A stretch of DNA of 64,000 bases. It comes from Spirochaetota bacterium (GTDB lineage: Bacteria > Spirochaetota > UBA4802 > UBA5368). Below the pieces are notes generated by a model. It was given only the letters and a program-made list of their open reading frames with translations. It did no database searches and was not told the DNA's origin. The stretch covers positions 3,265-67,264 of the forward strand of contig DATIKU010000036.1 in the NCBI GenBank assembly GCA_035477215.1. Direction: 5' to 3'. The position numbers and the translations under genes are program-made. This document shows positions 499-28,942 of the stretch, piece after piece. Numbering within the stretch: position 1 is the stretch's first letter; every line of letters begins with the position of its first letter.

Positions 499-840
499 TC
501 ACCAGTTATGGACAATGCTCTCGAGGTCCGACACAAGGCGCGGAATGTCCTCTCTCACTATGTCCCACAGGATATCGAAATCCACCTGGTTGTACCCATG
601 AATAAGCCGGTTTCGGAGCGCAATTATCTGACGCCACTGAACGGCCGGATACTCGTCACGCGTCCGGTCCGAAACACGCGACGCGGCCTCCCCGATTATC
701 TCAAGGAGCCGCACAAGGGAAAGATTCAGCCAGCGTAGTTCATCGAGGTCCGAACGACTTTTCCCCTCAGCGAAGCGGAGCACCTCGCCGGCATGGTCGA
801 GCATATCGAGAATTCGAACGCGGTCTTTCTCAGGAAGCAT
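499..840 (-). CDS. hepT: HepT-type (DUF86, HEPN-fold) toxin of a HepT/MntA toxin-antitoxin pair
   Basis: 113 aa. ALRNRLIHGYNQVDFDILW contains the R-x4-H-x-Y HEPN motif. The start overlaps the upstream nucleotidyltransferase gene by 11 nt (830-840). Confidence 0.85.
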   Translation of the reverse strand: MLPEKDRVRILDMLDHAGEVLRFAEGKSRSDLDELRWLNLSLVRLLEIIGEAASRVSDRTRDEYPAVQWRQIIALRNRLIHGYNQVDFDILWDIVREDIPRLVSDLESIVHNW

Positions 841-1126
841 AGGCCGTTTCCGCTTCAGCCAGCACCCTGTCGCGAAATCGCGGATTTAAAAAACCTTCGG
901 TGTTGAGATCGACCCTGCGGCCGAGTATCCCGGAGAGTTCCATTTCGATATCGAAAAACCGAAGACCGACGCTTACTCCGGGCTCGAACTCCACCAGCAC
1001 GTCGATATCACTGTCGGCGCCGAAATCATCGCGCAGAACCGAACCGAAAAACGACAGGCGGCGGATACGGTTCCTGCGGCAGAAGTCCGCGATTTTTTCC
1101 CGCGAATAATCAATTTTCATTTTCAT
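830..1126 (-). CDS. mntA: MntA-type minimal nucleotidyltransferase antitoxin
   Basis: 98 aa. FFGSVLRDDFGADSDIDVLVEF matches the G-S-x(9-10)-D-x-D pol-beta-type NTase motif. Shows the typical antitoxin-first, overlapping gene order with hepT. Confidence 0.85.
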   Translation of the reverse strand: MKMKIDYSREKIADFCRRNRIRRLSFFGSVLRDDFGADSDIDVLVEFEPGVSVGLRFFDIEMELSGILGRRVDLNTEGFLNPRFRDRVLAEAETAYAS

Positions 1127-1243: not shown

Positions 1244-1321
1244 GAGGAAAGGCGGGAAGCCCCGGGCGACGATGACGGTCGTCGCAGGGGGCCATAATCT
1301 TCAATCTTCAATCTTCAATCT
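1244..1321. repeat. 64-bp direct repeat, copy B (right flank of the TA cassette), followed by a 3x TCAATCT tandem heptamer
   Basis: 1244-1307 matches 414-477 (2 mismatches). 1301-1321 reads TCAATCT TCAATCT TCAATCT. The repeat abuts or overlaps the stop of the anti-sigma gene (1315-1317). Confidence 0.9.
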
Positions 1322-1890
1322 TTAATCGAAATCCCCACAAATCCGTTCAGATTTTCCGACAGCAGGTACTCGCCCGGGCCAACGCGCTCGAAGACGGCAA
1401 AGCCGTCGTAGACGCGGGCCACCGTGTAGCCGCGCTTACCGATGAGGTAGTACTTCGCCGAGTCGTCGACCGCGCGGACCTCGAGGGTGGCGCCCCGTTC
1501 CGTCGCGATGACCCGAAACGGCAGTTCGCCGCGGCGCATAGGCAGACGGTAATCGGCGACGGGCGCGTCGGAGTCGCCGAGCACGTGGGCGCGCGCGCCG
1601 GAGTCCAGATAGGGGCTGGCGGCCGGACGCACGGCTCCGGAGGCGACGGCGAAGGCGACCGACGGCAGGCGGGTGGTCTCGTCCGCAGCGGTTTCGGCGA
1701 GCGCCTCCTCGTAGAGGTAATAGTCCTCGAATAAGTAGCGGCACGAGTCGCACGCGGCCATGTGGGCCATCACGCGCTCGCGCTCGGCCTCGCTTCCGAT
1801 GAGCCCCTCGGCGAAGGCCATCACCAGTTCGGACATGTCGTCGCGGCATGGGGGCGCCTCAAGGATTTTATTCAGCCGTTTTTCGTCCAT
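1315..1890 (-). CDS. Anti-sigma factor, zf-HC2 type, apparently soluble (no clear TM segment)
   Basis: 191 aa. N-terminal VMAHMAACDSCRYLF matches the H-x3-C-x2-C zinc anti-sigma motif. Starts 9 nt after the ECF sigma gene stop. The only hydrophobic stretch (LPSVAFAVASGAV) is too short and weak for a TM helix. Confidence 0.7.
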   Translation of the reverse strand: MDEKRLNKILEAPPCRDDMSELVMAFAEGLIGSEAERERVMAHMAACDSCRYLFEDYYLYEEALAETAADETTRLPSVAFAVASGAVRPAASPYLDSGARAHVLGDSDAPVADYRLPMRRGELPFRVIATERGATLEVRAVDDSAKYYLIGKRGYTVARVYDGFAVFERVGPGEYLLSENLNGFVGISIKD

Positions 1891-1899
1891 GGCGCCCTC

Positions 1900-2556
1900 C
1901 TAATCGAACCCCACGTCGGGATGGCGCCTTTTAAGCGCGGACAACACGAGCTTTCGCGCCTTCGCGTAATGCTCGGATACGGTGGACTGCCGCAGGTTCA
2001 GGGCGCGCGCCGCATCCTGCTGGGTCATGCCGTCGAGGGCGATCATCGCGAAGATAAGGGCCTGCTTTCCGGGGAGGCGCGCCGCCTCGGCCTTCACGAA
2101 CTCCAGCATATCGCGGTCCTCCAGTGCGAGCTCGAAACCCGCGCCGCGGCCGGGCCCGGAGGCCGGAAAAGACCGCCGGTCGAGCTCTTCGGCGTCGAAG
2201 CAGTGTTCGGTTTTTTCGCGGCGCGTTTTCATCGCCCGCATCTGGTCCCTAAACTCGTTGCGTGCGATTATGACAAGGTACGCGGAGAGGGGGCAGAGGC
2301 CCCGGAAGGAACGCAGACCGTCCCTGAGAATTTTTTCGAAAACCGCCTGCGTGATGTCGTCGAGATCGTGCTCGTTGAACGCGCCGTGGTAGTTGCGCCC
2401 GAGCTTGCGCACGTACGCCCGGATGATATCGTGATGCTCGGCGATGGCCTTCATCGCGTTGCGGTTGTCCGGTGGATCGATGGGATGGTCCGGTTTCATG
2501 GCGATCAGGCCGCGCTTGTTCTCATGAAACCGTACCGTGTACACGAATTCCATCAT
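1900..2556 (-). CDS. ECF-type RNA polymerase sigma-70 family factor
   Basis: 218 aa. Region 2-like DITQAVFEKILRDGLRSFRG...LSAYLVIIARNEFRDQMR and region 4 HTH LPGKQALIFAMIALDGMTQQDAARALNLRQSTVSEHYAKARKLV. The true start could be the internal Met20 (MKPDHP...). Confidence 0.8.
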   Translation of the reverse strand: MMEFVYTVRFHENKRGLIAMKPDHPIDPPDNRNAMKAIAEHHDIIRAYVRKLGRNYHGAFNEHDLDDITQAVFEKILRDGLRSFRGLCPLSAYLVIIARNEFRDQMRAMKTRREKTEHCFDAEELDRRSFPASGPGRGAGFELALEDRDMLEFVKAEAARLPGKQALIFAMIALDGMTQQDAARALNLRQSTVSEHYAKARKLVLSALKRRHPDVGFD

Positions 2557-2741
2557 CCGTCAATCCTTTTACGAAGGGCCCGCGCCGCTCATATGCTCAT
2601 CCCATGCATGGTACGACGAGGATACATGGGGAAATATCGGCAAAAAACGCGCGGTACGCGCAAAATGCTTGAATTTTACACTCGACGGGCGCAGGATAGG
2701 CGCGAACCGTTCAATCCAATAAACAGAAAGGAAGCACCCTA

Positions 2742-4352
2742 TTGATCGAGCAGAGGCCGGCGCACGCCGTCGATCCGGAACTCACAAGGCGCCTGAAGGC
2801 CGCAAAACGCAAGGAGCGCTTCAGGCTGTATTTCGACGAGGTCCGTCCGCGCATAACCGAAATACTTCGCGAGCAGGCCGGGGAGAGGGCGCGCTCGGGC
2901 CTCATCCCCCGCTACGGCAGGCTGGCGCTCACCCTGGGGCACAATCCCATCCCCTCGCTCATCGTCGCCAACGCCTTCGCGCCGCCGAAACTCGTCCTGT
3001 TCCATCCGCCGCGCCACGGCAAACTGCTTCGGGAAAGGGTGCTTCCCGCGCTCGACGGTTCCATTCCGCGCGGGGGCATTGAGACGATAGAGCTTTCCTC
3101 CGCCGACCACGACGCCAACTACGCCGCCATCCGCGGGGCCCTCGCGTCGCGCCCGTTCGACGGCCATACGTTATGCGACATCACCGGCGGCAAGAAGATA
3201 CTCTCCATGCAGCTGGGCCTCATCGCCCGCGAGCTCGGATTCGACCTGTGCTACATCGACAGCGAGTCGTACATCCCGAACTCGGACATCCCGGAGCCAG
3301 GCAGCGAATCGCTCTACATACACTCCGCCGATCGCGACGGCCTGACCTCCATCCGCATGGAAAGCGCCCCCCGCCTCACCGTCAGCCTCGTCCCGGCCAC
3401 GGGGGCCGCCGTCTTCAATTTCGACGCGGACGGCACCCCTTACAAGTTCACCCTGTCCGACCTCAGCGATTCGGTCGTGGAGACCGTGCGCGCGGAGATC
3501 GACGCCATATACGCGCGCATCAACGCCAATGTTCTGCGCGGAGAGGATTCACAGCGCGAGCTGGACGATCTCGCCGGCCTGGTACGCTCCATGCTCATGC
3601 CTCAGGGCCTGGACGAGCGGATACGGGGCGCCGCCGGAGGACTTCGACTGCACCTCGACACCGAGCTCGCCGGCATTCCCTGGGAGGTCGCGTTCAACCG
3701 GCTGTACGGAACGCCTATTCCCCTCCAGCGCATGTTCAACCGGACCATCGATTACCGCCGGCTCGAGCCGACCACGCAGAAAAAGGAGGGGGCGCTCGTG
3801 ATTCTGGGCTCCGCCGAGGGCATACCGCTCTTCGGCGAGATCGCCGACTGGCTCGGGGCCTACTCCCTGCGCTCCCCCGTCAAGATACGGACCGCCGTCG
3901 CCGAGTCCCGCGGCGCGCTCCAGAAGGAGCTCGGCACGCGCCGCTACGACGCCGTGCTGTATTTCGGCCACTCGGAGTACGGCCCGTCTGAGGAGGAGAC
4001 CGGTTGGCGCTGCGTAAACGGCGAGATTTTCCATTGTGGGAGCCTCCGCTGCATAGAGAACACGCCGCCCGACCTCATCATCTCCAACTCCTGCCACAGT
4101 GCGCGTTCCATGCCCTTCGCGGCGCACTCCTTCGCCTGCAGCGCCATGCGCGCCGGGGTGCGCACCTACATCGGCACGCGCTGGCTGCTCGAGTTCGAGC
4201 GCAGCCGCGCGTTCCTGGAGGCCGTCACCGACGCCATGCTGGTCCCCAGAGTGTCCCCGGCGCGGGCGTTCGCGCGGGCCCTGGCGGCGCTCGCCGAACG
4301 CTTCGGCGGGCGCGACATCGCGCTGTACAATTACGTATACTACGGGAAGTGA
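2742..4352 (+). CDS. Fusion protein: N-terminal CARF-like (Card1/Can2 DUF1887-like) sensor domain plus C-terminal CHAT (caspase-fold) protease domain
   Basis: 536 aa. TTG start at 2742 with GAAAGGAAG 7 nt upstream. LCDITGGKKILSMQLGLIARELGFDLCYID (nt 3174-) resembles the CARF x-TGG-x-K loop. The CHAT-like part has LRLHLDTELAGIPWEVAF, AVLYFGHSEYG (His410, nt 3969-3971) and DLIISNSCHSA (Cys451, nt 4092-4094). The ORF itself is very likely real; the domain calls come from motif memory only. Confidence 0.65.
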   Translation: MIEQRPAHAVDPELTRRLKAAKRKERFRLYFDEVRPRITEILREQAGERARSGLIPRYGRLALTLGHNPIPSLIVANAFAPPKLVLFHPPRHGKLLRERVLPALDGSIPRGGIETIELSSADHDANYAAIRGALASRPFDGHTLCDITGGKKILSMQLGLIARELGFDLCYIDSESYIPNSDIPEPGSESLYIHSADRDGLTSIRMESAPRLTVSLVPATGAAVFNFDADGTPYKFTLSDLSDSVVETVRAEIDAIYARINANVLRGEDSQRELDDLAGLVRSMLMPQGLDERIRGAAGGLRLHLDTELAGIPWEVAFNRLYGTPIPLQRMFNRTIDYRRLEPTTQKKEGALVILGSAEGIPLFGEIADWLGAYSLRSPVKIRTAVAESRGALQKELGTRRYDAVLYFGHSEYGPSEEETGWRCVNGEIFHCGSLRCIENTPPDLIISNSCHSARSMPFAAHSFACSAMRAGVRTYIGTRWLLEFERSRAFLEAVTDAMLVPRVSPARAFARALAALAERFGGRDIALYNYVYYGK

Positions 4353-4396
4353 GCCCGCGGCGGCACCTCCCGAAAATACATCGAGGACGCATACCG

Positions 4397-7300
4397 ATGA
4401 AAAAAATCCAGGCCGAAACGGCCGACCTGCTTTTCGGCCAGGTCCGCGACATCGACGCGGCCGTGTACGACGCCGCCCTCAAGCTCGACCGGTTCCGCGT
4501 AACGCTCGAGGAGCTCTTCCTGCACCTCACGCGCGACGAGCGCCTGTGCTTCGCCTCCGATCACGCCGGGCGCATGTACTTCATCTACGACACCTATAAC
4601 GCTCCGAAAGACCTCCAGAGGGAGCTTAACGCCCTGCGCGCCTACACCAATCTCTTCCATCACCCGGGGCATCCCGACCCGGACACGGAGAAGTACCTCG
4701 TATGCCTGAAGACCCTGTGCGGCGCGATAGAATACTTCTCGCCGCATGGCGCGCCGAAAGCGCTCACCGAACGCTACGGCCCCGTCGCGCATATCTCCAT
4801 GAAGGGGAAAGAGACCCCGCCGAGGGAGCGGATCGAATTCCTCCGCGCCGTAGTCCGCGCGGTGAAGCGCGCGAAGCCGGCGGGCAGATCGGCGGAGAGT
4901 TTCCTGGCATGTTCCGACGGCAACGGCGACGGCCTCGGGATCTCGTTCTGGGACCACGACGGCGACGCGCCCGGGCAAAAGATAGGCGACATGGCCGACC
5001 TCGCCTGGATCCCGGCCACGGTGCACCTTTTCGACATAGAGAAGCTCTCGAAGGGCGAGCGGTTGTATTCCACCACGCGGTCTTCCATGGTGGTGCTCGA
5101 GCCCGACTACCTGGTCGACGCCACCGCGGTCGCGGGCTGTTTTTCAAACAGCGGGGCGAACCCGCTTGTGCACCTCCTCAACCGGTTCAGGCCCTACGAG
5201 ATACGGGAGTCCATTGTCAGGGGAACCATCGCCAACCATCTGCTGGACCGCCTGGTCGCCGACGGCAAGGCGCCCTTCGAGCGGCTCTTCGGCGAGGCGA
5301 CGGCCGAATGCGCGCTCGACATCGCCGCGCTGCTGCACGGCGACGCGGGGCCCGACCCGGCGGCGATCGATTCTCTGAAGAACTCGGCAAGGACCCACTA
5401 CGCCGTTATAAAACAATGCCTGCAGGAATTCCGCTCCTCCCAGATCCACATCGAGCCGAGTTTCATCTCCCCGCGGTACGGCCTGCAGGGACGGCTGGAC
5501 CTCCTGGTGGAGCACGGGGGCGAACGCTGGGACGTCATCGAGCTCAAGTCGTCCGGGCGGGTCCCGGACGGCCGCGGGCCGTGGCCCAACGACGCCGCCC
5601 AGGCCCTGTGCTACGAGCTCATGCTCGACTCGACCTTCCGGGGCCGCGAGGGCGCGGGCTGTATCCTCTACTGTTCCGACGCGAGCGGAAGAACGCCGCT
5701 TCGCCATGTTGAAAGCAAAACGTCCAGCCGCCAGAACGCGCTCATGGTGCGCAACCGCATCGTGTCCCTCGAGCGGCGGCTCGCTTCCGGCGACACGTCG
5801 GTGCTCCACTCCATCCGCCCGGACGCCTTCGCCGGCATGCCGGGATATGTGCGCGAGTGGGCCGGGGAATTTCACCGCGCCCTCGCATCGACCGCGCCGC
5901 TGGAGCGCGCCTGGTTTTCCGCCTTCGCCTCGTTCGTCGCGCGCGAGCAGTGGACGGCGAAGCTCGGCGCGGCCTCCCGCGCCGGAAGCGCCGGCCACGC
6001 GGCGCTCTGGAACGCGAGCGTCGACCAGAAACAGCAGTCCTATTCCATACTGCACTACCTCGAGATTGAGCCTAAAAAGTGTGATTTCGAAAAATTTCAC
6101 CTAACCTTCAAGCGCAGCCTCTACACCGACAGGGAGACCGGCTTCCGCACGGGCGATATCTGCCTTCTCTATCCCGTGGAGAAACAGGGCGAGTCCAGGC
6201 CATGGGAGCGGACCGTGCTCAAGGGGACGATCCGCGAGCTGTCGCCCGACCTCGTGACGGTGGCCCTGCGAAACAGGAACGCCGACCGGCGCTACCTGAA
6301 ACAGTTTCCCTACTGGTCACTCGAGCGCGACCTCATGGAGTCCGGCTTCAACGACCTCTACCGCGCGCTCTACGCCTTCCTCTGCGCCCCGGCCGAAACG
6401 CGCGGCCTCATCCTCGGCCTCTCTCGCCCGCGCTTCGAGGAAACCTGTCCCGTGCCGCTCGACTACGACGGCGGCGACGGCGCCGTGGCCGACGCGCTCG
6501 GGCGCGCGCTCTCTTCGCGCGACTATTATCTCGTACAGGGCCCGCCCGGCACCGGCAAGACCTCCATCGCGCTGAAGGAGATCGTGCGACACCTGCACCG
6601 CGGAACGTCCGAAAACCTCATGATAATCGCCTTCACCAACCGCGCCGTGGACGAGATCTGCGACAACCTCGCCGAGGCATCCATACCCTTCATCCGCCTC
6701 GGGCGCGACGCGGGGAACGCGCAGAAGAGCATGCAGTCGCTCAGTGATGAAATGGGCCCCGCCGAGCTCTATGGGCGCCTGCGCGCCGAGCGCGTCTTCG
6801 TCTCGACCGCGGCCTCGGCCCAGCGCGCGCCGGCGCTCTTCCGCATAAAGCGCTTCCGCACGCTCATCGTGGACGAAGCCTCGCAGCTCACCGAGCCCGC
6901 CCTTGCAGGCCTTTTAACGCGCTTCGAGCGCTTCATATTGATCGGCGACGAGAAACAGCTTCCGGCAGTGGTGACCCAGGCCGAGGAACACTGCGTGGTG
7001 GACGACACGAAGCTTCGCGACATCGGCCTGGCCTCGCTTTCGGGCTCGCTCTTCGAGCGGCTGGTGCGAAACGCCGCGGCCAGGGGCTGGAGTGAGGCGC
7101 ACGGCATGCTCGTAACCCAGGGGCGCATGCATCGCGACATCGCCGAATTCTCCAACCGCGAGTACTACGGCGGAAGGCTCACGGAGGCCCTCGAACGGCA
7201 GACGGCCGCGCGGGGGATGTTCGATCCCGCCTCGGGCGACGTGCTCGAGCGCGCGCTCGGCTCCGCGCGCGTGGTCTTCTTTCCGTCCACGGCGGAATCC

Positions 7301-7762
7301 GGAACGCGCACCCACAGGGGAGAGGCGCGCGCGGTGCGGCGGATCGTCGAATGCGCGCTTAGCGCACTCGGCGGGGATTTTACGGTTAGGTCGCTCGGCG
7401 TCATCACCCCCTTCCGCGCCCAGATAGGCGAAATCCGAAGGGAGATCGCCGAAATCGATTCGCCGCTCGACCTCGACGCGCTCGTCACCGTCGACACCGT
7501 CGAGCGCTTCCAGGGGAGCCAGCGCGACATCATCGTGGTCTCGTTCGCCCTCAACCATCCCGGTAGGATCGCCCAGGCCCAATCGCTCTCCCCCGACGGC
7601 GCGGTGGACCGCAAGCTCAACGTCACCCTTACGCGCGCCCGCGAGCACCTGGTGCTGCTGGGATGCCCAGGGGTGCTCGAGAAGGCGCCGCAGTATGCAA
7701 AACTGCTGGAGCACGTCCGGAAGCTGGGCGGGCACCTGGACCCAGGCCCGTTATTCCGTTAG
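4397..7762 (+). CDS. Dna2-like nuclease-helicase: Cas4/RecB-type PD-(D/E)xK nuclease domain plus SF1B (Upf1/Dna2-like, AAA_11/AAA_12) helicase
   Basis: 1121 aa from ATG 4397 (GAGGA 8 nt upstream). The track ORF from 4004 is an out-of-context extension. Nuclease motifs: GLQGRLDLLVEHGGERWDVIELKSS ... QALCYELML (D368, E382, K384). Helicase motifs: GPPGTGKTS (nt 6539-6565), FTNRAVDEI, LIVDEASQLTEP, LIGDEKQLPAVV, TQGRMHRDIAEFSNREYYGGRL, GVITPFRAQ, VERFQGSQRDIIVVS, LNVTLTRAREHLVLLG. Confidence 0.85.
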   Translation: MKKIQAETADLLFGQVRDIDAAVYDAALKLDRFRVTLEELFLHLTRDERLCFASDHAGRMYFIYDTYNAPKDLQRELNALRAYTNLFHHPGHPDPDTEKYLVCLKTLCGAIEYFSPHGAPKALTERYGPVAHISMKGKETPPRERIEFLRAVVRAVKRAKPAGRSAESFLACSDGNGDGLGISFWDHDGDAPGQKIGDMADLAWIPATVHLFDIEKLSKGERLYSTTRSSMVVLEPDYLVDATAVAGCFSNSGANPLVHLLNRFRPYEIRESIVRGTIANHLLDRLVADGKAPFERLFGEATAECALDIAALLHGDAGPDPAAIDSLKNSARTHYAVIKQCLQEFRSSQIHIEPSFISPRYGLQGRLDLLVEHGGERWDVIELKSSGRVPDGRGPWPNDAAQALCYELMLDSTFRGREGAGCILYCSDASGRTPLRHVESKTSSRQNALMVRNRIVSLERRLASGDTSVLHSIRPDAFAGMPGYVREWAGEFHRALASTAPLERAWFSAFASFVAREQWTAKLGAASRAGSAGHAALWNASVDQKQQSYSILHYLEIEPKKCDFEKFHLTFKRSLYTDRETGFRTGDICLLYPVEKQGESRPWERTVLKGTIRELSPDLVTVALRNRNADRRYLKQFPYWSLERDLMESGFNDLYRALYAFLCAPAETRGLILGLSRPRFEETCPVPLDYDGGDGAVADALGRALSSRDYYLVQGPPGTGKTSIALKEIVRHLHRGTSENLMIIAFTNRAVDEICDNLAEASIPFIRLGRDAGNAQKSMQSLSDEMGPAELYGRLRAERVFVSTAASAQRAPALFRIKRFRTLIVDEASQLTEPALAGLLTRFERFILIGDEKQLPAVVTQAEEHCVVDDTKLRDIGLASLSGSLFERLVRNAAARGWSEAHGMLVTQGRMHRDIAEFSNREYYGGRLTEALERQTAARGMFDPASGDVLERALGSARVVFFPSTAESGTRTHRGEARAVRRIVECALSALGGDFTVRSLGVITPFRAQIGEIRREIAEIDSPLDLDALVTVDTVERFQGSQRDIIVVSFALNHPGRIAQAQSLSPDGAVDRKLNVTLTRAREHLVLLGCPGVLEKAPQYAKLLEHVRKLGGHLDPGPLFR

Positions 7763-8508
7763 GCGGTCTTGCTTCCCGGCCTGCGGTCCGGCACCACCAG
7801 CACGGCGCTCATGCGCGAGATCCTGAACGTGCGCTCCTCCCCGCGAAGGCGGCAAAAGCCCGTCATATACGCCTCACCGCGGTACGACAGTACGCGAAGC
7901 GGCCTCACCCAGCGCCGCGTGGAGTTTAACCGCCTGTCCTCGTAATCGAACGCCACCCAATGACCGCGCTGTATGGCGATCTCGATGACGAAGGCGAGCT
8001 CCGAGGACTTCGATTCGATGGGAAAGGCCTTCGTCATGTCCGCGTCCGGCTCCGCCCCGGGCTCCGTGGCCGCCGCGCGCCGGGCCCTGCCGGAGGAAGG
8101 AGCGGGCGCCTTCCGGCTCTTCTCCCCGGCGGGCGGATGCGCACCCGACCTGGCGGCCGCCGAAACACGCACCGCAACCGCCTCCTCCTTCATCTCGCGC
8201 TCGAGGCGCTCGCGCCGCAGGGCGCGGAGCGCGAGCTCGCTTTTTACCAGCAGACGCACCAACAGACCCAGCGTAAGGTAGAGTGACGCCTCGCTCCAGG
8301 CGATAAACTCGAACTCCGGATACGTCGGAAGATATATTCCGTGCCGGTTGACCCAGTGGTCCGTCACCGCGGCGACAAGGTCGAACGCGCCTCCCGCCAC
8401 CTCGCATGCGGAGGCGTAGAGCGCGCTCCAGCCCGGAAACGCGTTTTCGACGACGCAGGCGGTGTTGAACGCCATGAAGCCTGTCAGCAGCCAGTGGCTC
8501 TTTTTCAT
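7759..8508 (-). CDS. Membrane-associated WYL-domain protein (N-terminal hydrophobic segments, coiled/low-complexity linker, C-terminal WYL)
   Basis: 249 aa. N-terminal hydrophobic stretches HWLLTGFMAFNTACVV, WSALYASACEVAGGAFDLVAAV, FIAWSEASLYLTLGLLVRLLV. C-terminus HWVAFDYEDRRLNSTRRWVRPLRVLSYRGEAYMTGFCRLRGEERTFRISRM matches the WYL-domain pattern. Its stop overlaps the helicase stop (convergent). Confidence 0.65.
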   Translation of the reverse strand: MKKSHWLLTGFMAFNTACVVENAFPGWSALYASACEVAGGAFDLVAAVTDHWVNRHGIYLPTYPEFEFIAWSEASLYLTLGLLVRLLVKSELALRALRRERLEREMKEEAVAVRVSAAARSGAHPPAGEKSRKAPAPSSGRARRAAATEPGAEPDADMTKAFPIESKSSELAFVIEIAIQRGHWVAFDYEDRRLNSTRRWVRPLRVLSYRGEAYMTGFCRLRGEERTFRISRMSAVLVVPDRRPGSKTA

Positions 8509-9127: not shown

Positions 9128-10054
9128 TCAGCGGGCGCGCCGGTACACCGAAGAGCTCTCTTTGAGCATCTGGACCATGGTCTTGCGCAGTTCGGGCGGC
9201 TCGAGGATCTCCACGTTTCTTCCGTACAGGAAGAGCTGCTTGCAGAGGAAGCGATCGTCCGAGACGGTGAAAGAGGCGCGGTAGTGGTGTTCGCCGTCGG
9301 GGCGGATGTCCGGGTCGAGAATGGAGAGGTTTTCCTCCATCGTGCCGAGGAGCTTTTCGTGGAAGCGAAGGGCCACGGCGTATTTCGGGCCGATGAACGA
9401 GCCCAGCGAATCGCGGAAGACCTCCTCTACCGGCGGGGCGTCCTCGGGGAACTCGTCGTCGAGCACGGCAAGAGCGTTGATCCGGTTGAAGATAAAGAGC
9501 GCGGTGACGTTATGCGTGAGGCTTCTGCACACCAGGTACAGGTTGTTGTTGCGGAACACCAGGTGATACGGGTGCACGCGGTAGCGCCGCGGCTCGCTCG
9601 CCGCGGCCGGGGTGTAGTCGAACTCCATCTTCTTTTTTAATAATGCGGCGAAGTAGACGCGGGCCAGCATCCACAGGCCGTCCTCCGGATGGCGCGCGAT
9701 GAGCTTACGCAGTATAATGTCGCGGCCCGTGTCCGCGGTCACGAAACCCGAATAGACCGCGGCCATGCGGAGCTGGAGCTCCTCGCCGAGCGGGATGCGG
9801 AGCCCCGTGTGCCGCTTGCCCTTTTCGGTGGCGACCTCTATTCCGAAATCGTTTACCAGGTACTTCTGGATATAGTCGCGCACGGCCTTGTCGGTGATGG
9901 GGTCGCGCGGCTCGTCCATGGAGAGCAGGTCGGCGAGGCTTCCGGCGTTCCACTGCACCGTATCCGAAGGATTCTGCAGAAGCGCCAGCACGTGCAGGCA
10001 GCGCTTGATGACGCCGAGCCGGGTTTCGGGATTGGGGATGGGAGCGTCTTTCAT
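9128..10054 (-). CDS. HTH-WYL-WCX transcriptional regulator (BrxR/CapW/PafBC-like architecture)
   Basis: 309 aa from ATG 10054 (GAGAGGAG SD upstream). N-terminal wHTH-like LGVIKRCLHVLALLQNP...LADLLS. WYL core RRYRVHPYHLVFRNNNLYLVCRSLTHNVTALFIFNRINALAVL. C-terminal extension. The track ORF start (10222) reads through a palindromic repeat. Confidence 0.75.
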   Translation of the reverse strand: MKDAPIPNPETRLGVIKRCLHVLALLQNPSDTVQWNAGSLADLLSMDEPRDPITDKAVRDYIQKYLVNDFGIEVATEKGKRHTGLRIPLGEELQLRMAAVYSGFVTADTGRDIILRKLIARHPEDGLWMLARVYFAALLKKKMEFDYTPAAASEPRRYRVHPYHLVFRNNNLYLVCRSLTHNVTALFIFNRINALAVLDDEFPEDAPPVEEVFRDSLGSFIGPKYAVALRFHEKLLGTMEENLSILDPDIRPDGEHHYRASFTVSDDRFLCKQLFLYGRNVEILEPPELRKTMVQMLKESSSVYRRAR

Positions 10055-10172
10055 TTCGGCTCCTCTCTGTTTTTGTCGCATGGTAGCGGACACCCGCGGG
10101 AAACGCAACACTTTTTGCGGCTGAACGAAATCCCTCCGGCGGAGCGGGTACATTAAATCCCAAGCGTGCGCG

Positions 10173-10289
10173 GTCATTGCGAGGAGGCCGCGGGCCGACG
10201 TGGCGATCTCAAAGGACAACACGTCGATTCATGGAGCATCCGCTATAAAGAGATTGCCACGCCCCGATGAGACAGGGGCTCGCAATGAC
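10173..10289. repeat. About 117-bp palindromic (hairpin-forming) intergenic element, copy 1
   Basis: GTCATTGCGAG (10173-10183) pairs perfectly with CTCGCAATGAC (10279-10289). The inner arms CGTGGCGATCTC / GAGATTGCCACG pair with one G-U position. Same arm sequences as 27103-27216. Confidence 0.8.
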
Positions 10290-27247: not shown

Positions 27248-27685
27248 TTACCTGACGTAAAACTCGTGAGGATAGACGCCTTCTCCAACCGCAAGATACA
27301 CAACCTCGGTCTCGCTCATGCTCCCCAGCAGATACTGCCCGAGCGAAGCGTCGCCGTTTTCGTTGATTATTCCGATCGATCCGATCAGCAAAACAACGGC
27401 CGCAGCGGCGGCGGCGAATGGAACAGGGCCGAACGGGCGCCCGGGCCATAACGCCCTGCGCTTCCCCTCACGATATTTTCGGATAATTTCGGCCGTAGGC
27501 GCCGACGCCGTTACGGTCCCTCCCGCCCGGATGAGAATGCGGCGCAGGGCCTGGATCTCGTCAAGGCGCGCGCAGCAGACGGAGCAAATGGCAAGGTGCT
27601 CCTCGATGCCGGACATCTCGACAGGGTCCGCGCACTCGCCGTCGGCATAGCGGTTGAGCAGTCTCCCGGCATTTTTACACTTCAT
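27248..27685 (-). CDS. Membrane-anchored zf-HC2 anti-sigma factor
   Basis: 145 aa. EEHLAICSVCCARL matches H-x3-C-x2-C. TM segment PFAAAAAAVVLLIGSIGII. 11-nt overlap with the upstream ECF sigma gene. Confidence 0.75.
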   Translation of the reverse strand: MKCKNAGRLLNRYADGECADPVEMSGIEEHLAICSVCCARLDEIQALRRILIRAGGTVTASAPTAEIIRKYREGKRRALWPGRPFGPVPFAAAAAAVVLLIGSIGIINENGDASLGQYLLGSMSETEVVYLAVGEGVYPHEFYVR

Positions 27686-28175
27686 GGTCCACCTCCCCCC
27701 GAATAATGGGATGCAGAATTCTTTTCAACAGTTCGCGCGCCCGGAAGAGGCGCGATTCGACCGTCCCCACGGAGCACTCGAGTACGTCAGCGATTTCGCG
27801 GTACGACCTGCCCTCGAACTCCCGTAAAATAACGACCGTACGATATTTAACCGGTAGATCCATGAGCGCGCCGCGCACCATATCCGAAACGGCCGACTTA
27901 TGCGTGAAATCGTCCGCGCCTGCGACGTCATGATAACGCTCGTCGAACGGCTCCGCCGCCCTTCTTTTGCGTTTCCTGAGCGAATCGATGCAGGTATTGA
28001 CGCCGATACGGTAGATCCACGTCGACAGATCCGCCTCACCCCTGAACGACTCCATCCTGTCGAGCAGCTTCACGAACACGTCCTGGGCAAGGTCGCAGGC
28101 CTCGTCGCGGTCGCGTACGAAAGAGAAGCAGAGGTTGTACACTCTGCCGTAATACCGTTCGACAAAATCCTTCAT
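27675..28175 (-). CDS. ECF-type sigma-70 family factor (RpoE-like)
   Basis: 166 aa from ATG 28175. An upstream in-frame Met (MRLRN.. or MESM..) is possible. ACDLAQDVFVKLL, STWIYRIGVNTCIDSLRKR, LPVKYRTVVILREFEGRSYREIADVLECSVGTVESRLFRAR. Confidence 0.8.
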   Translation of the reverse strand: MKDFVERYYGRVYNLCFSFVRDRDEACDLAQDVFVKLLDRMESFRGEADLSTWIYRIGVNTCIDSLRKRKRRAAEPFDERYHDVAGADDFTHKSAVSDMVRGALMDLPVKYRTVVILREFEGRSYREIADVLECSVGTVESRLFRARELLKRILHPIIRGEVDHEV

Positions 28176-28480
28176 CCCCCGTTCGCCGCCGAACGCGGAC
28201 ACGGGTGATGGGACGGCGTCATTCCGCAATCTCATGCTCTCCATGATACCATTTTGACGCATGGGATACACGTAATATTCCATTTTTTTCACGCCCGCCG
28301 GTCGGAGGACAAAAAAAGGACGGGGTATCTCCCGCCCTTTTTCCGTGTCCGTTATCGACGGCTTAAAGCCGGTACGCGATGCCCCCGATGTACAGCGGTT
28401 CGAATTCACCGTCCCCGAAGGCGCCGTCCGCCTCGAAGATATAGCTCGTGCCGCCCCGGCGAAGACCGAAAGCGTGTCGG

Positions 28481-28942
28481 TCATTCTGAACCCGAGAACG
28501 ACCCTGCCCTGCAGGGCCATTCTGTCGGTCCGGTCGCCCTCGCCCGGTTGACCCCCGACGAGAGCTGCACCGCGCTCACGGAGGCGCCGGGCTTGCGGCG
28601 GAACATGTTGTCGTTACCGCGCGCCACACAGCCGGAGCGGTCGATGAGCGCCCTGGTCTCGGCCGTCACCCCGGTAAAATAGGTGGGGGAGCCGATGATG
28701 ATGCCGTCCGCCGCGAGCATTTTCGCTATGCATTCGTTTACGATGTTTGTATCGATCGAACAGCGACGGTCCTTCCGCTCCCTGCACTTGCCGCAGGCCG
28801 TGCAGCCCCGGACGGGCTTTACGCCGATGTGCACAAGCTCGCATTCGATTCCCGCGGCCTCGAGAGGCTCGAACACCTTTTTGATCAATATGGACGTATT
28901 CCCCTGTTTCCTCGGACTGCCGTTAAACGCGACGACCTTCAT
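28481..28942 (-). CDS. Flavodoxin-like / NADPH-dependent FMN reductase family protein (iron-sulfur-flavoprotein-like), 3' end probably disrupted
   Basis: ATG 28942 with a GGGAG SD. MKVVAFNGSPRKQGNTS..., CTACGKC, ADGIIIGSPTYFTGVTAETRALIDR. After RRKPGASVSAV the frame becomes atypical, while another frame continues VGGQPGEGDRTDRMALQGRVVLG, which looks like the expected continuation. Confidence 0.6.
   Translation of the reverse strand: MKVVAFNGSPRKQGNTSILIKKVFEPLEAAGIECELVHIGVKPVRGCTACGKCRERKDRRCSIDTNIVNECIAKMLAADGIIIGSPTYFTGVTAETRALIDRSGCVARGNDNMFRRKPGASVSAVQLSSGVNRARATGPTEWPCRAGSFSGSE

Follow-up and report, generated by a model that had tools for sequence, protein, structure and literature searches.

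A CARF-CHAT sensor-protease gene linked to a sigma/anti-sigma pair in Spirochaetota, a predicted CRISPR-linked switch

The window examined here, a 64,000-nucleotide stretch of a Spirochaetota genome (assembly GCA_035477215.1, contig DATIKU010000036.1, positions 3,265 to 67,264 of the forward strand), carries at positions 2742-4352 (plus strand) a gene for a 536-aa sensor-protease in which an N-terminal CARF domain is joined to a C-terminal CHAT domain, as judged from the open reading frame (ORF), Pfam CHAT and PADLOC CARF matches, a structure model and fold matches. An earlier model-made reading of the bare letters (the original prediction) had called this ORF, and both the ORF list and the translation place it exactly there. 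The gene begins with TTG, 8-15 nt downstream of a Shine-Dalgarno-like AAAGGAAG, and is preceded by a TTGAC-type -35 element; its GC content at third codon positions (GC3) of 0.86 matches that of the real genes of the window (60% GC). An identical 536-aa protein (P0001) is already present in a public protein collection, and NCBIfam assigns no family to it. Divergent from the CARF-CHAT gene, on the minus strand, lie the genes for an extracytoplasmic function (ECF)-type sigma factor and a zf-HC2 anti-sigma factor, a conserved context that was absent from the original prediction.

The N-terminal half of the protein is a CARF sensor, as had been proposed, with CARF matches returned by PADLOC, Foldseek, profile and BLASTP searches alike for a Csm6-like domain with N-terminal helices spanning residues ~1-195 (2742-3326, plus strand). 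PADLOC is without a cognate model for the CARF-CHAT protein, and its best score was 33 bits, to a CARF-HEPN model; the CARF1--CARF_HEPN models matched residues ~56-194 at E = 5.6e-9 and 7.3e-9, and the Csx1 models matched the same region at E about 3e-5. We take the names of the PADLOC CARF models (CARF1, CARF4, CARF_m13) to follow the 2020 CARF classification scheme. An AlphaFold2 model built from a 16-sequence family alignment reached a mean predicted local distance difference test score (pLDDT) of 85.6, and a Foldseek search of its N-terminal half against the PDB returned the CARF domains of Thermus thermophilus Csm6 (TtCsm6; 8jbc, 5fsh, 8jbb), Cam1 (8t65 and 8t66, with cyclic tetra-adenylate (cA4) or cyclic hexa-adenylate (cA6) bound), Can1 and Cad1, the alignment to 8jbb_A covering 194 columns at a root-mean-square deviation of 3.3. 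Compared with PDB sequences, the family profile reached TtCsm6 at E = 8.7e-4 over residues 25-204, pairing DITGGKK with DLTSGTK and also aligning the downstream Y-I-D...P-x-P-G-x-E segment; it matched the ring nuclease Sso2081 as well, there pairing DITGGKK with DITGGRK, and Can2 weakly (E = 0.02). Within a library of 1.84 billion representatives the nearest CARF-only relatives were CARF-6H-HEPN (Csm6) proteins, and BLASTP of residues 1-200 against one of this type, P0115, gave E = 9e-18. Pfam reported no SAVED family, and the N-terminal half matched CARF models and structures only.

The predicted ligand loop, D146-I-T148-G149-G150-K151-K152 (3177-3197, plus strand), has the form [DN]x[ST]xxx[RK] and stands after CARF strand beta4, as read from the translation and the family alignment; the TGG triplet that the original prediction had placed at 3183-3191 lies within it. 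The loop follows model strand 142-146 and is near-invariant among the 16 family members, its D, T, G and K152 being invariant even into distant CARF-CHAT subfamilies. The domain had been compared with the Card1/Can2 (DUF1887) class; the CARF fold and the DxTGGxK loop stand, whereas the subtype is Csm6-like by its stronger matches. The Card1/Can2 assignment was rejected on those matches and because the window protein gave no Pfam CARF_Card1 match at E up to 1; that family matches 5 of the 16 members, the window protein not among them. Of the two types, Csm6 (CARF1/Crf1) is the nearer to this CARF domain. Pfam found no HEPN or Csm6 6H domain in the window protein, whose C-terminal half is CHAT, and no PD-(D/E)xK nuclease domain is fused to it.

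Residues ~301-536 (3642-4349, plus strand) make up a CHAT caspase-fold protease domain by both Pfam (PF12770) and Foldseek. The Pfam match extends over residues 282-517 at 27.5 bits (E = 2.6e-6; gathering cut-off 24) and recurs in all 16 family members, the best at E = 1.7e-11. Foldseek aligned the C-terminal half with separase (5fc3_B, 4.8e-10) and with Csx29/TPR-CHAT (8eex_B and 8d9f_A, about 2e-9), and hhalign of the CARF-CHAT family against 20 generic CHAT proteins gave 99.9% and E = 3.3e-31 from residue 219 onward. In that alignment FGHS pairs with AGHA and SNSCHSA with SNSCQSA, so that His410 and Cys451 coincide with the invariant His and the invariant Cys of the generic proteins. A PDB sequence-profile search with the family yielded CARF matches and no CHAT structure; kinship of the protease domain to solved structures is therefore carried by the fold together with Pfam and hhalign. 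The predicted catalytic residues, His410 of the FGHS motif (3969-3971, plus strand) and Cys451 of SNSCHSA (4092-4094, plus strand), are preceded by model strands 404-412 and 445-450 and are invariant in the family and in distant subfamilies. Codon arithmetic from the ORF start puts both where the original prediction had put them, and its reading of the C-terminal half as CHAT with a His/Cys dyad agrees with Pfam, with the paired catalytic residues in hhalign and with the fold.

Between the two domains, residues ~196-300 (3327-3641, plus strand) form a beta-sandwich and helical linker in the secondary structure of the model, and this linker accompanies CHAT elsewhere: the module from about residue 205 onward recurs as the C terminus of Ser/Thr kinase (Pkinase)-TPR proteins of ~1280 aa (P0028, P0029, P0032; E about 1e-84 to 1e-68), which implies that this CHAT lineage is coupled to other kinds of sensor too. 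Pfam found no TPR in the CARF-CHAT protein itself. The two-domain architecture, CARF at the N terminus and CHAT at the C terminus, is confirmed. Of the computationally checkable outcomes that the original prediction had named as fatal to it, an N-terminal half without a CARF match and a His/Cys pair out of register with the CHAT dyad, neither occurred.

A word-indexed search of 5.8 billion proteins recovered 16 CARF-CHAT clusters, and an exhaustive profile search extended this to ~18 full-length clusters at 50% identity plus a handful of distant ~520-aa CARF-CHAT proteins. The genomes matched are nearly all Spirochaetota or Leptospirales metagenome-assembled genomes (MAGs), with one Desulfomonile MAG besides. 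Members that share only 29-81% identity preserve His410, Cys451 and the CARF loop with little or no variation, and the distant ~520-aa proteins (P0086 at locus L050, P0081 at locus L051) retain the D-x-T-G-x-x-K loop together with the catalytic His and Cys. Such conservation across a diverged family points to purifying selection on both domains, which bears on the thought that the window gene could be a decaying or catalytically dead relic, or that its CARF domain might serve solely as a ring nuclease or ligand sponge with no protease output. Csm6-type CARF domains are able to degrade their own ligand, as this idea would need; we nevertheless consider it highly improbable, given the full-length ORF, the high GC3 and the persistence of His410, Cys451 and the loop down to about 30% identity.

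The sigma factor encoded beside the protease (218 aa; 1900-2556, minus strand) matches Pfam Sigma70_r2 and Sigma70_r4_2, and its profile matches ECF sigma factors in the PDB, including sigma-H, sigma-E and SigW. Its partner (191 aa; 1315-1890, minus strand) is a soluble anti-sigma factor with an H-x3-C-x2-C zf-HC2 domain (Pfam, 23.4 bits against a cut-off of 22.2) and a C-terminal beta-rich domain; C15, H43, C47 and C50 are invariant across its orthologues, and no transmembrane or long hydrophobic segment is readable in its sequence. Among 21 aligned orthologues, Leu104 (1579-1581, minus strand), in the context x-V-L-[GSDA], is the sole invariant residue of an otherwise variable linker, and we regard it, speculatively and by inference from this alignment, as a candidate cleavage position. 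The 3' end of the anti-sigma gene is overlapped by a 7-nt tandem repeat of AATCTTC (4.6 copies, 1296-1327). A second, unrelated ECF sigma gene (Sigma70_ECF) occurs at 27675-28520 (minus strand) in the housekeeping part of the window.

The linkage of this pair to the protease was assessed in 49 CARF-CHAT loci, which reduce to 32 non-redundant lineages. Sigma and/or anti-sigma orthologues lie within 10 kb of the CARF-CHAT gene in 24 of the 32 lineages, mostly Spirochaetota, and anti-sigma orthologues were found in 28 of 45 loci; in six of the remaining eight lineages the available flank is shorter than 3 kb on one or both sides. At the distant locus L050 the CARF-CHAT gene adjoins a sigma factor and two zf-HC2 proteins, so the linkage may predate the family studied here.

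A second conserved feature of these loci is a short element upstream of the sigma gene. In the window it consists of a T-tract followed by CCGATAT (2634-2647, minus strand), 84 nt upstream of the sigma gene, and is a candidate sigma-dependent promoter element through which the gene might be autoregulated. Many lineages carry an A/T-tract and CCGATAT, often followed by TYCCC, oriented with the sigma gene and at a distance of 45-250 nt upstream of it, among them L004 and L018, in which that gene lies apart from CARF-CHAT. The same element precedes cas1 in L008, L030 and L037, the S8 peptidase gene in L003, L005 and L037, a 534-aa Peptidase_MA-like gene in L008 and L030, G25 genes in relatives and several small ORFs. 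Altogether, 25 sites of the W-tract-CCGATAT form occur in 19 loci, where 2.4 were expected and the highest count in 200 simulations was 7, for instance at L001 3615/4262/9920/11641, L003 9526, L005 3492/9469, L008 511/9437, L030 5773/9843/14175 and L037 10842. The enrichment is limited to this form and to the loci, the bare CCGATAT 7-mer being unenriched over the whole window (12 sites against 8.9 expected). Its conservation in sequence suggests a sigma regulon, to which the S8 peptidase may belong, as the element precedes that gene in three loci. The element never points toward the CARF-CHAT gene, which, together with the TTGAC-type -35 element of that gene, fits a constitutively expressed sensor. 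Directly upstream of the element in the window, a GC hairpin, GCGCGTACCGCGCG, is followed by T6 (2648-2662, minus strand); it is terminator-like in form, no upstream same-strand gene needs termination there, and its conservation does not extend beyond the closest relatives, L011 and L012.

A source for the ligand is suggested by the genomic surroundings of the relatives. Eleven of the 32 lineages have CRISPR arrays, cas1, cas2, Csx1 (PADLOC 2.4e-126) or Cas_APE2256 nearby, and L030 holds a complete type III-B locus with an intact Cas10 GGDD motif, in the order Cas10-Cmr3-Cmr4-Cmr5-Cmr6, array, cas1-cas2, array, anti-sigma, sigma, CARF-CHAT, Csx1, Cas_APE2256. The pair and the type III-B linkage would thus probably supply both a substrate and a signal source for the protease.

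On these grounds we propose, with a probability of roughly 55%, that the CARF-CHAT protein is a cyclic-oligoadenylate (cOA)-gated protease that cleaves the anti-sigma factor and so frees the ECF sigma factor for CCGATAT promoters. A cOA made by the Cas10 of a type III CRISPR system would bind the Csm6-like CARF domain, probably in a homodimer, and ligand binding would turn on the C-terminal CHAT protease through His410 and Cys451. The activated protease would cut the soluble zf-HC2 anti-sigma factor, perhaps at or near Leu104 of its linker, and cleavage would release the partner sigma factor to drive T/A-tract-CCGATAT promoters, in the window that of its own operon and in relatives putatively also those of cas1-cas2, the large S8 peptidase gene and other genes. 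Of the elements of this scheme, we observe the domain architecture, the conserved motifs and gene linkage, the type III-B context of relatives and the enrichment of the DNA motif, and we infer the identity of the ligand, the mechanism of activation, the substrate, its cleavage site, the promoter role of the motif and the source of the signal in the window. Effectors that use different cOAs rarely share a locus (PMC11229360), and the CARF-CHAT gene co-occurs with Csx1, a cA4 effector; cA4 is for this reason our weak guess for the CARF ligand. CARF-CHAT and the sigma/anti-sigma pair would probably constitute an undescribed CRISPR-linked switch through which the alarm raised by a virus leads to new gene expression.

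Several observations weigh against this proposal. The single-sequence structure model of the anti-sigma factor is poor (pLDDT 47), with a helical N terminus and a beta-rich C terminus, and a PDB profile search with the protein returned nothing meaningful, with no match to CalpT, Csx30 or a classical anti-sigma factor. The pair is genuinely absent from L022 and L017, which keep the protease, and its linkage elsewhere fits either cleavage of the anti-sigma factor by the protease or control of the protease locus by the pair, and cannot tell the two apart. A conserved -35 element upstream of CCGATAT was sought in the loci and none was found, and the most divergent clade lacks the CCGATAT element. 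Csm6-type CARF domains often bind cA6, which speaks against the choice of cA4. Finally, Pfam or PADLOC scans of ~40 larger ORFs of the window detected no Cas10, CD-NTase or cas gene, and no Cas10, CD-NTase or array is seen in the 10 kb flanking the gene in the five lineages closest to the window (at least 74% identity).

The absence of Cas10, CD-NTase and CRISPR array from the window had been stated in the original prediction and holds as far as tested: no array was detected by Tandem Repeats Finder over the whole window or by a direct-repeat scan of its first 14 kb, no Cas7-11-sized gene lies near CARF-CHAT in the window, no C14 caspase gene is present among the window ORFs scanned, and beyond about 11 kb those ORFs are housekeeping only. 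In place of cas genes and arrays, the window and its five closest lineages have a HepT/MNT pair, WYL regulators and the nuclease-helicase nearby. The module could accordingly be independent of CRISPR in the window lineage, answering to another nucleotide-like ligand or to a signal made elsewhere, as a stand-alone stress or defence circuit of sigma factor, anti-sigma factor, protease and nuclease-helicase; the CARF clades Crf3 and Crf6, which are typically not CRISPR-associated, offer a parallel. We judge this improbable. The ligand-loop residues are conserved equally in the window clade and in the CRISPR-linked clades, and the visible DNA amounts to 64 kb, so that a type III locus may lie elsewhere in the genome. 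Ancillary genes of type III systems often function in trans, which also counts against independence from CRISPR.

The neighbours named above are as follows. Only 41 nt downstream of CARF-CHAT, a gene for a 1122-aa protein (4394-7762, plus strand; Pfam AAA_11, AAA_12, Dna2) combines a Dna2/Cas4-like PD-(D/E)xK nuclease with a superfamily 1 (SF1) helicase. Its sequence includes the motifs GRLDLL, IELK, QALCY, GPPGTGKT and DEASQ, and the protein matches PADLOC MkoA (7e-55) and Cas4 (4e-5), as well as NCBIfam PLuB_AAA at 1e-73 but below cut-off. The gene stands beside CARF-CHAT in six lineages, including the distant L039 and L041, and in L039 it lies between cas1 and CARF-CHAT. The Dna2-like nuclease-helicase is probably an effector co-expressed with the protease, though it may instead be an adaptation factor or a substrate. 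Further downstream are genes for a 249-aa WYL-domain protein (7759-8508, minus strand; Pfam WYL 4.8e-14) and a 364-aa WYL-WCX regulator-like protein (9128-10222, minus strand; Pfam WYL and WCX; PADLOC WYL 9e-25); WYL-WCX homologues recur in nine loci, and these two WYL proteins flank the island. Beyond the anti-sigma gene, a HepT-like RNase and an MNT nucleotidyltransferase (499-840 and 830-1126, minus strand) form a toxin-antitoxin pair, and the MNT gene is also found in L010.

Other neighbours appear only among the relatives. Twelve loci of the distant clade carry G3 (~674 aa) between the anti-sigma and CARF-CHAT genes, in an apparent operon with the sigma and anti-sigma genes (for example L018 1948-3978, L036 2330-4351, L038 5750-7771 and L043 11609-13624), and in 6 of the 12 a 134-aa protein, G10, is encoded directly upstream of CARF-CHAT. 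A Peptidase_S8-fn3 protein of ~1050 aa with an adjacent ~150-aa lipoprotein occurs near CARF-CHAT in eight loci (for example L002 7326-10469, L003 6278-9457 and L005 9533-12721). Pfam and PADLOC gave no match for the neighbours G3 (674 aa), G10 (134 aa), F13/G23 (~510 aa) and F20 (~707 aa).

These large conserved neighbours allow a different assignment of the substrate. The ligand-gated protease might, by cleavage, activate or destroy the nuclease-helicase (six lineages), the 674-aa G3 (12 loci) or an S8 pro-peptidase (eight loci) in a cascade, or might degrade host proteins broadly and bring about abortive infection, while the sigma/anti-sigma pair merely controls expression of the island. 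SAVED-CHAT acts through such a protease cascade, on PCaspase; the DdvA/DdvS sigma/anti-sigma pair is reported to regulate a CBASS-CRISPR island in Myxococcus (PMC11506125); and L022 and L017 retain the protease with no pair. We think this account rather unlikely. No neighbour is linked to the protease as consistently as the pair (24 of 32 lineages against at most 12), and the anti-sigma factor is soluble and cytoplasmic, hence within reach of the protease. That CCGATAT never points toward CARF-CHAT argues in addition against a sigma factor that drives expression of the protease.

Returning to anti-sigma cleavage as the preferred explanation, we entertain, as a possible but tentative extension of it, that the system represents the third route, put together independently of the other two, by which a CRISPR signal reaches a sigma factor through a protease, that in type III-B systems it would link cOA signalling to the induction of cas1-cas2 (for spacer acquisition) and of secreted or effector proteins by way of the W-tract-CCGATAT element as a dedicated promoter motif, and that the window lineage has become uncoupled from CRISPR-Cas and wired to the Dna2-like nuclease-helicase as a portable alarm-to-transcription cassette that would hear signals made elsewhere in the cell.

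Proteases under the control of a CRISPR signal are few (CalpL, SAVED-CHAT and Craspase) and attract attention for their part in immunity as well as for their potential as programmable protein switches. If correct, the gating of a caspase-like protease by CARF would add a new sensor-effector pairing, and the circuit from CRISPR signal through protease to sigma factor would have arisen on three or more occasions out of unrelated parts; such repeated assembly would argue that type III immunity in general includes an arm that reprograms transcription. Because the family offers a predicted substrate, a candidate cleavage residue, a candidate promoter motif and a candidate regulon that includes cas1-cas2, a feed-forward from interference to spacer acquisition is now open to direct tests. 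A small-molecule-activated protease of compact size (536 aa) with a defined substrate could, on the same condition, also serve as a tool.

The original prediction was aware of no characterised CARF-CHAT fusion, and we likewise found none in the searchable literature, which did not cover subscription journals or the 2020 CARF classification. Papers there that bear on CARF, CHAT and type III proteases deal with SAVED-CHAT, CalpL and Craspase only; a survey of type III effectors from 2024 names no proteases other than CalpL and SAVED-CHAT, and a 2025 table of type III signalling components contains no CARF-plus-protease family.

Among single effectors, Csm6 (Crf1) has the most similar CARF domain, a likeness that takes in the helix at its N terminus and the stretch following beta5 (YxDxxxY...PxPGxE); its 6H domain and HEPN RNase are replaced here by the beta-sandwich/helical linker and CHAT. 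Card1/Can2 (Crf4) has in common the CARF fold and a DxTGGxK-type loop, whereas CARF-CHAT has no fused nuclease domain. The SAVED-CHAT protein of the Haliangium hybrid of type III-B and the cyclic-oligonucleotide-based antiphage signalling system (CBASS) likewise joins a second-messenger sensor to a CHAT protease and has a sigma factor in its locus, but its sensor is SAVED, which responds to cyclic tri-adenylate (cA3) with filament formation, and its substrate is a second protease, PCaspase.

At the level of the circuit, the two informative comparisons are CalpL and Craspase. CalpL cleaves CalpT, whereupon CalpS is released, and the CalpL/CalpT/CalpS system resembles the one described here in having a cOA sensor-protease fusion adjoining a cytoplasmic anti-sigma factor and an ECF-type sigma factor, type III-B contexts and a transcriptional output, which in our case is predicted. 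Its sensor is SAVED and its protease a Lon Ser/Lys enzyme, in contrast to the Csm6-like CARF and Cys/His CHAT caspase fold of CARF-CHAT; the zf-HC2 anti-sigma factor has no detectable similarity to CalpT, making the two analogous rather than homologous, and the oligomerisation-driven activation of CalpL cannot be assumed for CARF-CHAT. Craspase, the type III-E complex of Cas7-11 and Csx29 acting with Csx30 and CASP-sigma, has the same protease fold and likewise sets the protease beside an ECF sigma factor and a sigma-binding protein, a role that is predicted here. Csx29 cuts Csx30, a binding partner of CASP-sigma, and motifs for CASP-sigma are found at cas1 (PMC10028731), just as CCGATAT lies upstream of cas1 in L008, L030 and L037. 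Csx29 differs in being activated directly when target RNA binds Cas7-11, a second messenger playing no part, so that in CARF-CHAT the CARF domain takes the place of the TPR/Cas7-11 interface, and Csx30 is unrelated to the zf-HC2 anti-sigma factor. By analogy with both, the best reading of CARF-CHAT and its sigma/anti-sigma pair is that they would be a functional analogue of CalpL/CalpT/CalpS and of Csx29/Csx30/CASP-sigma, built from different parts.

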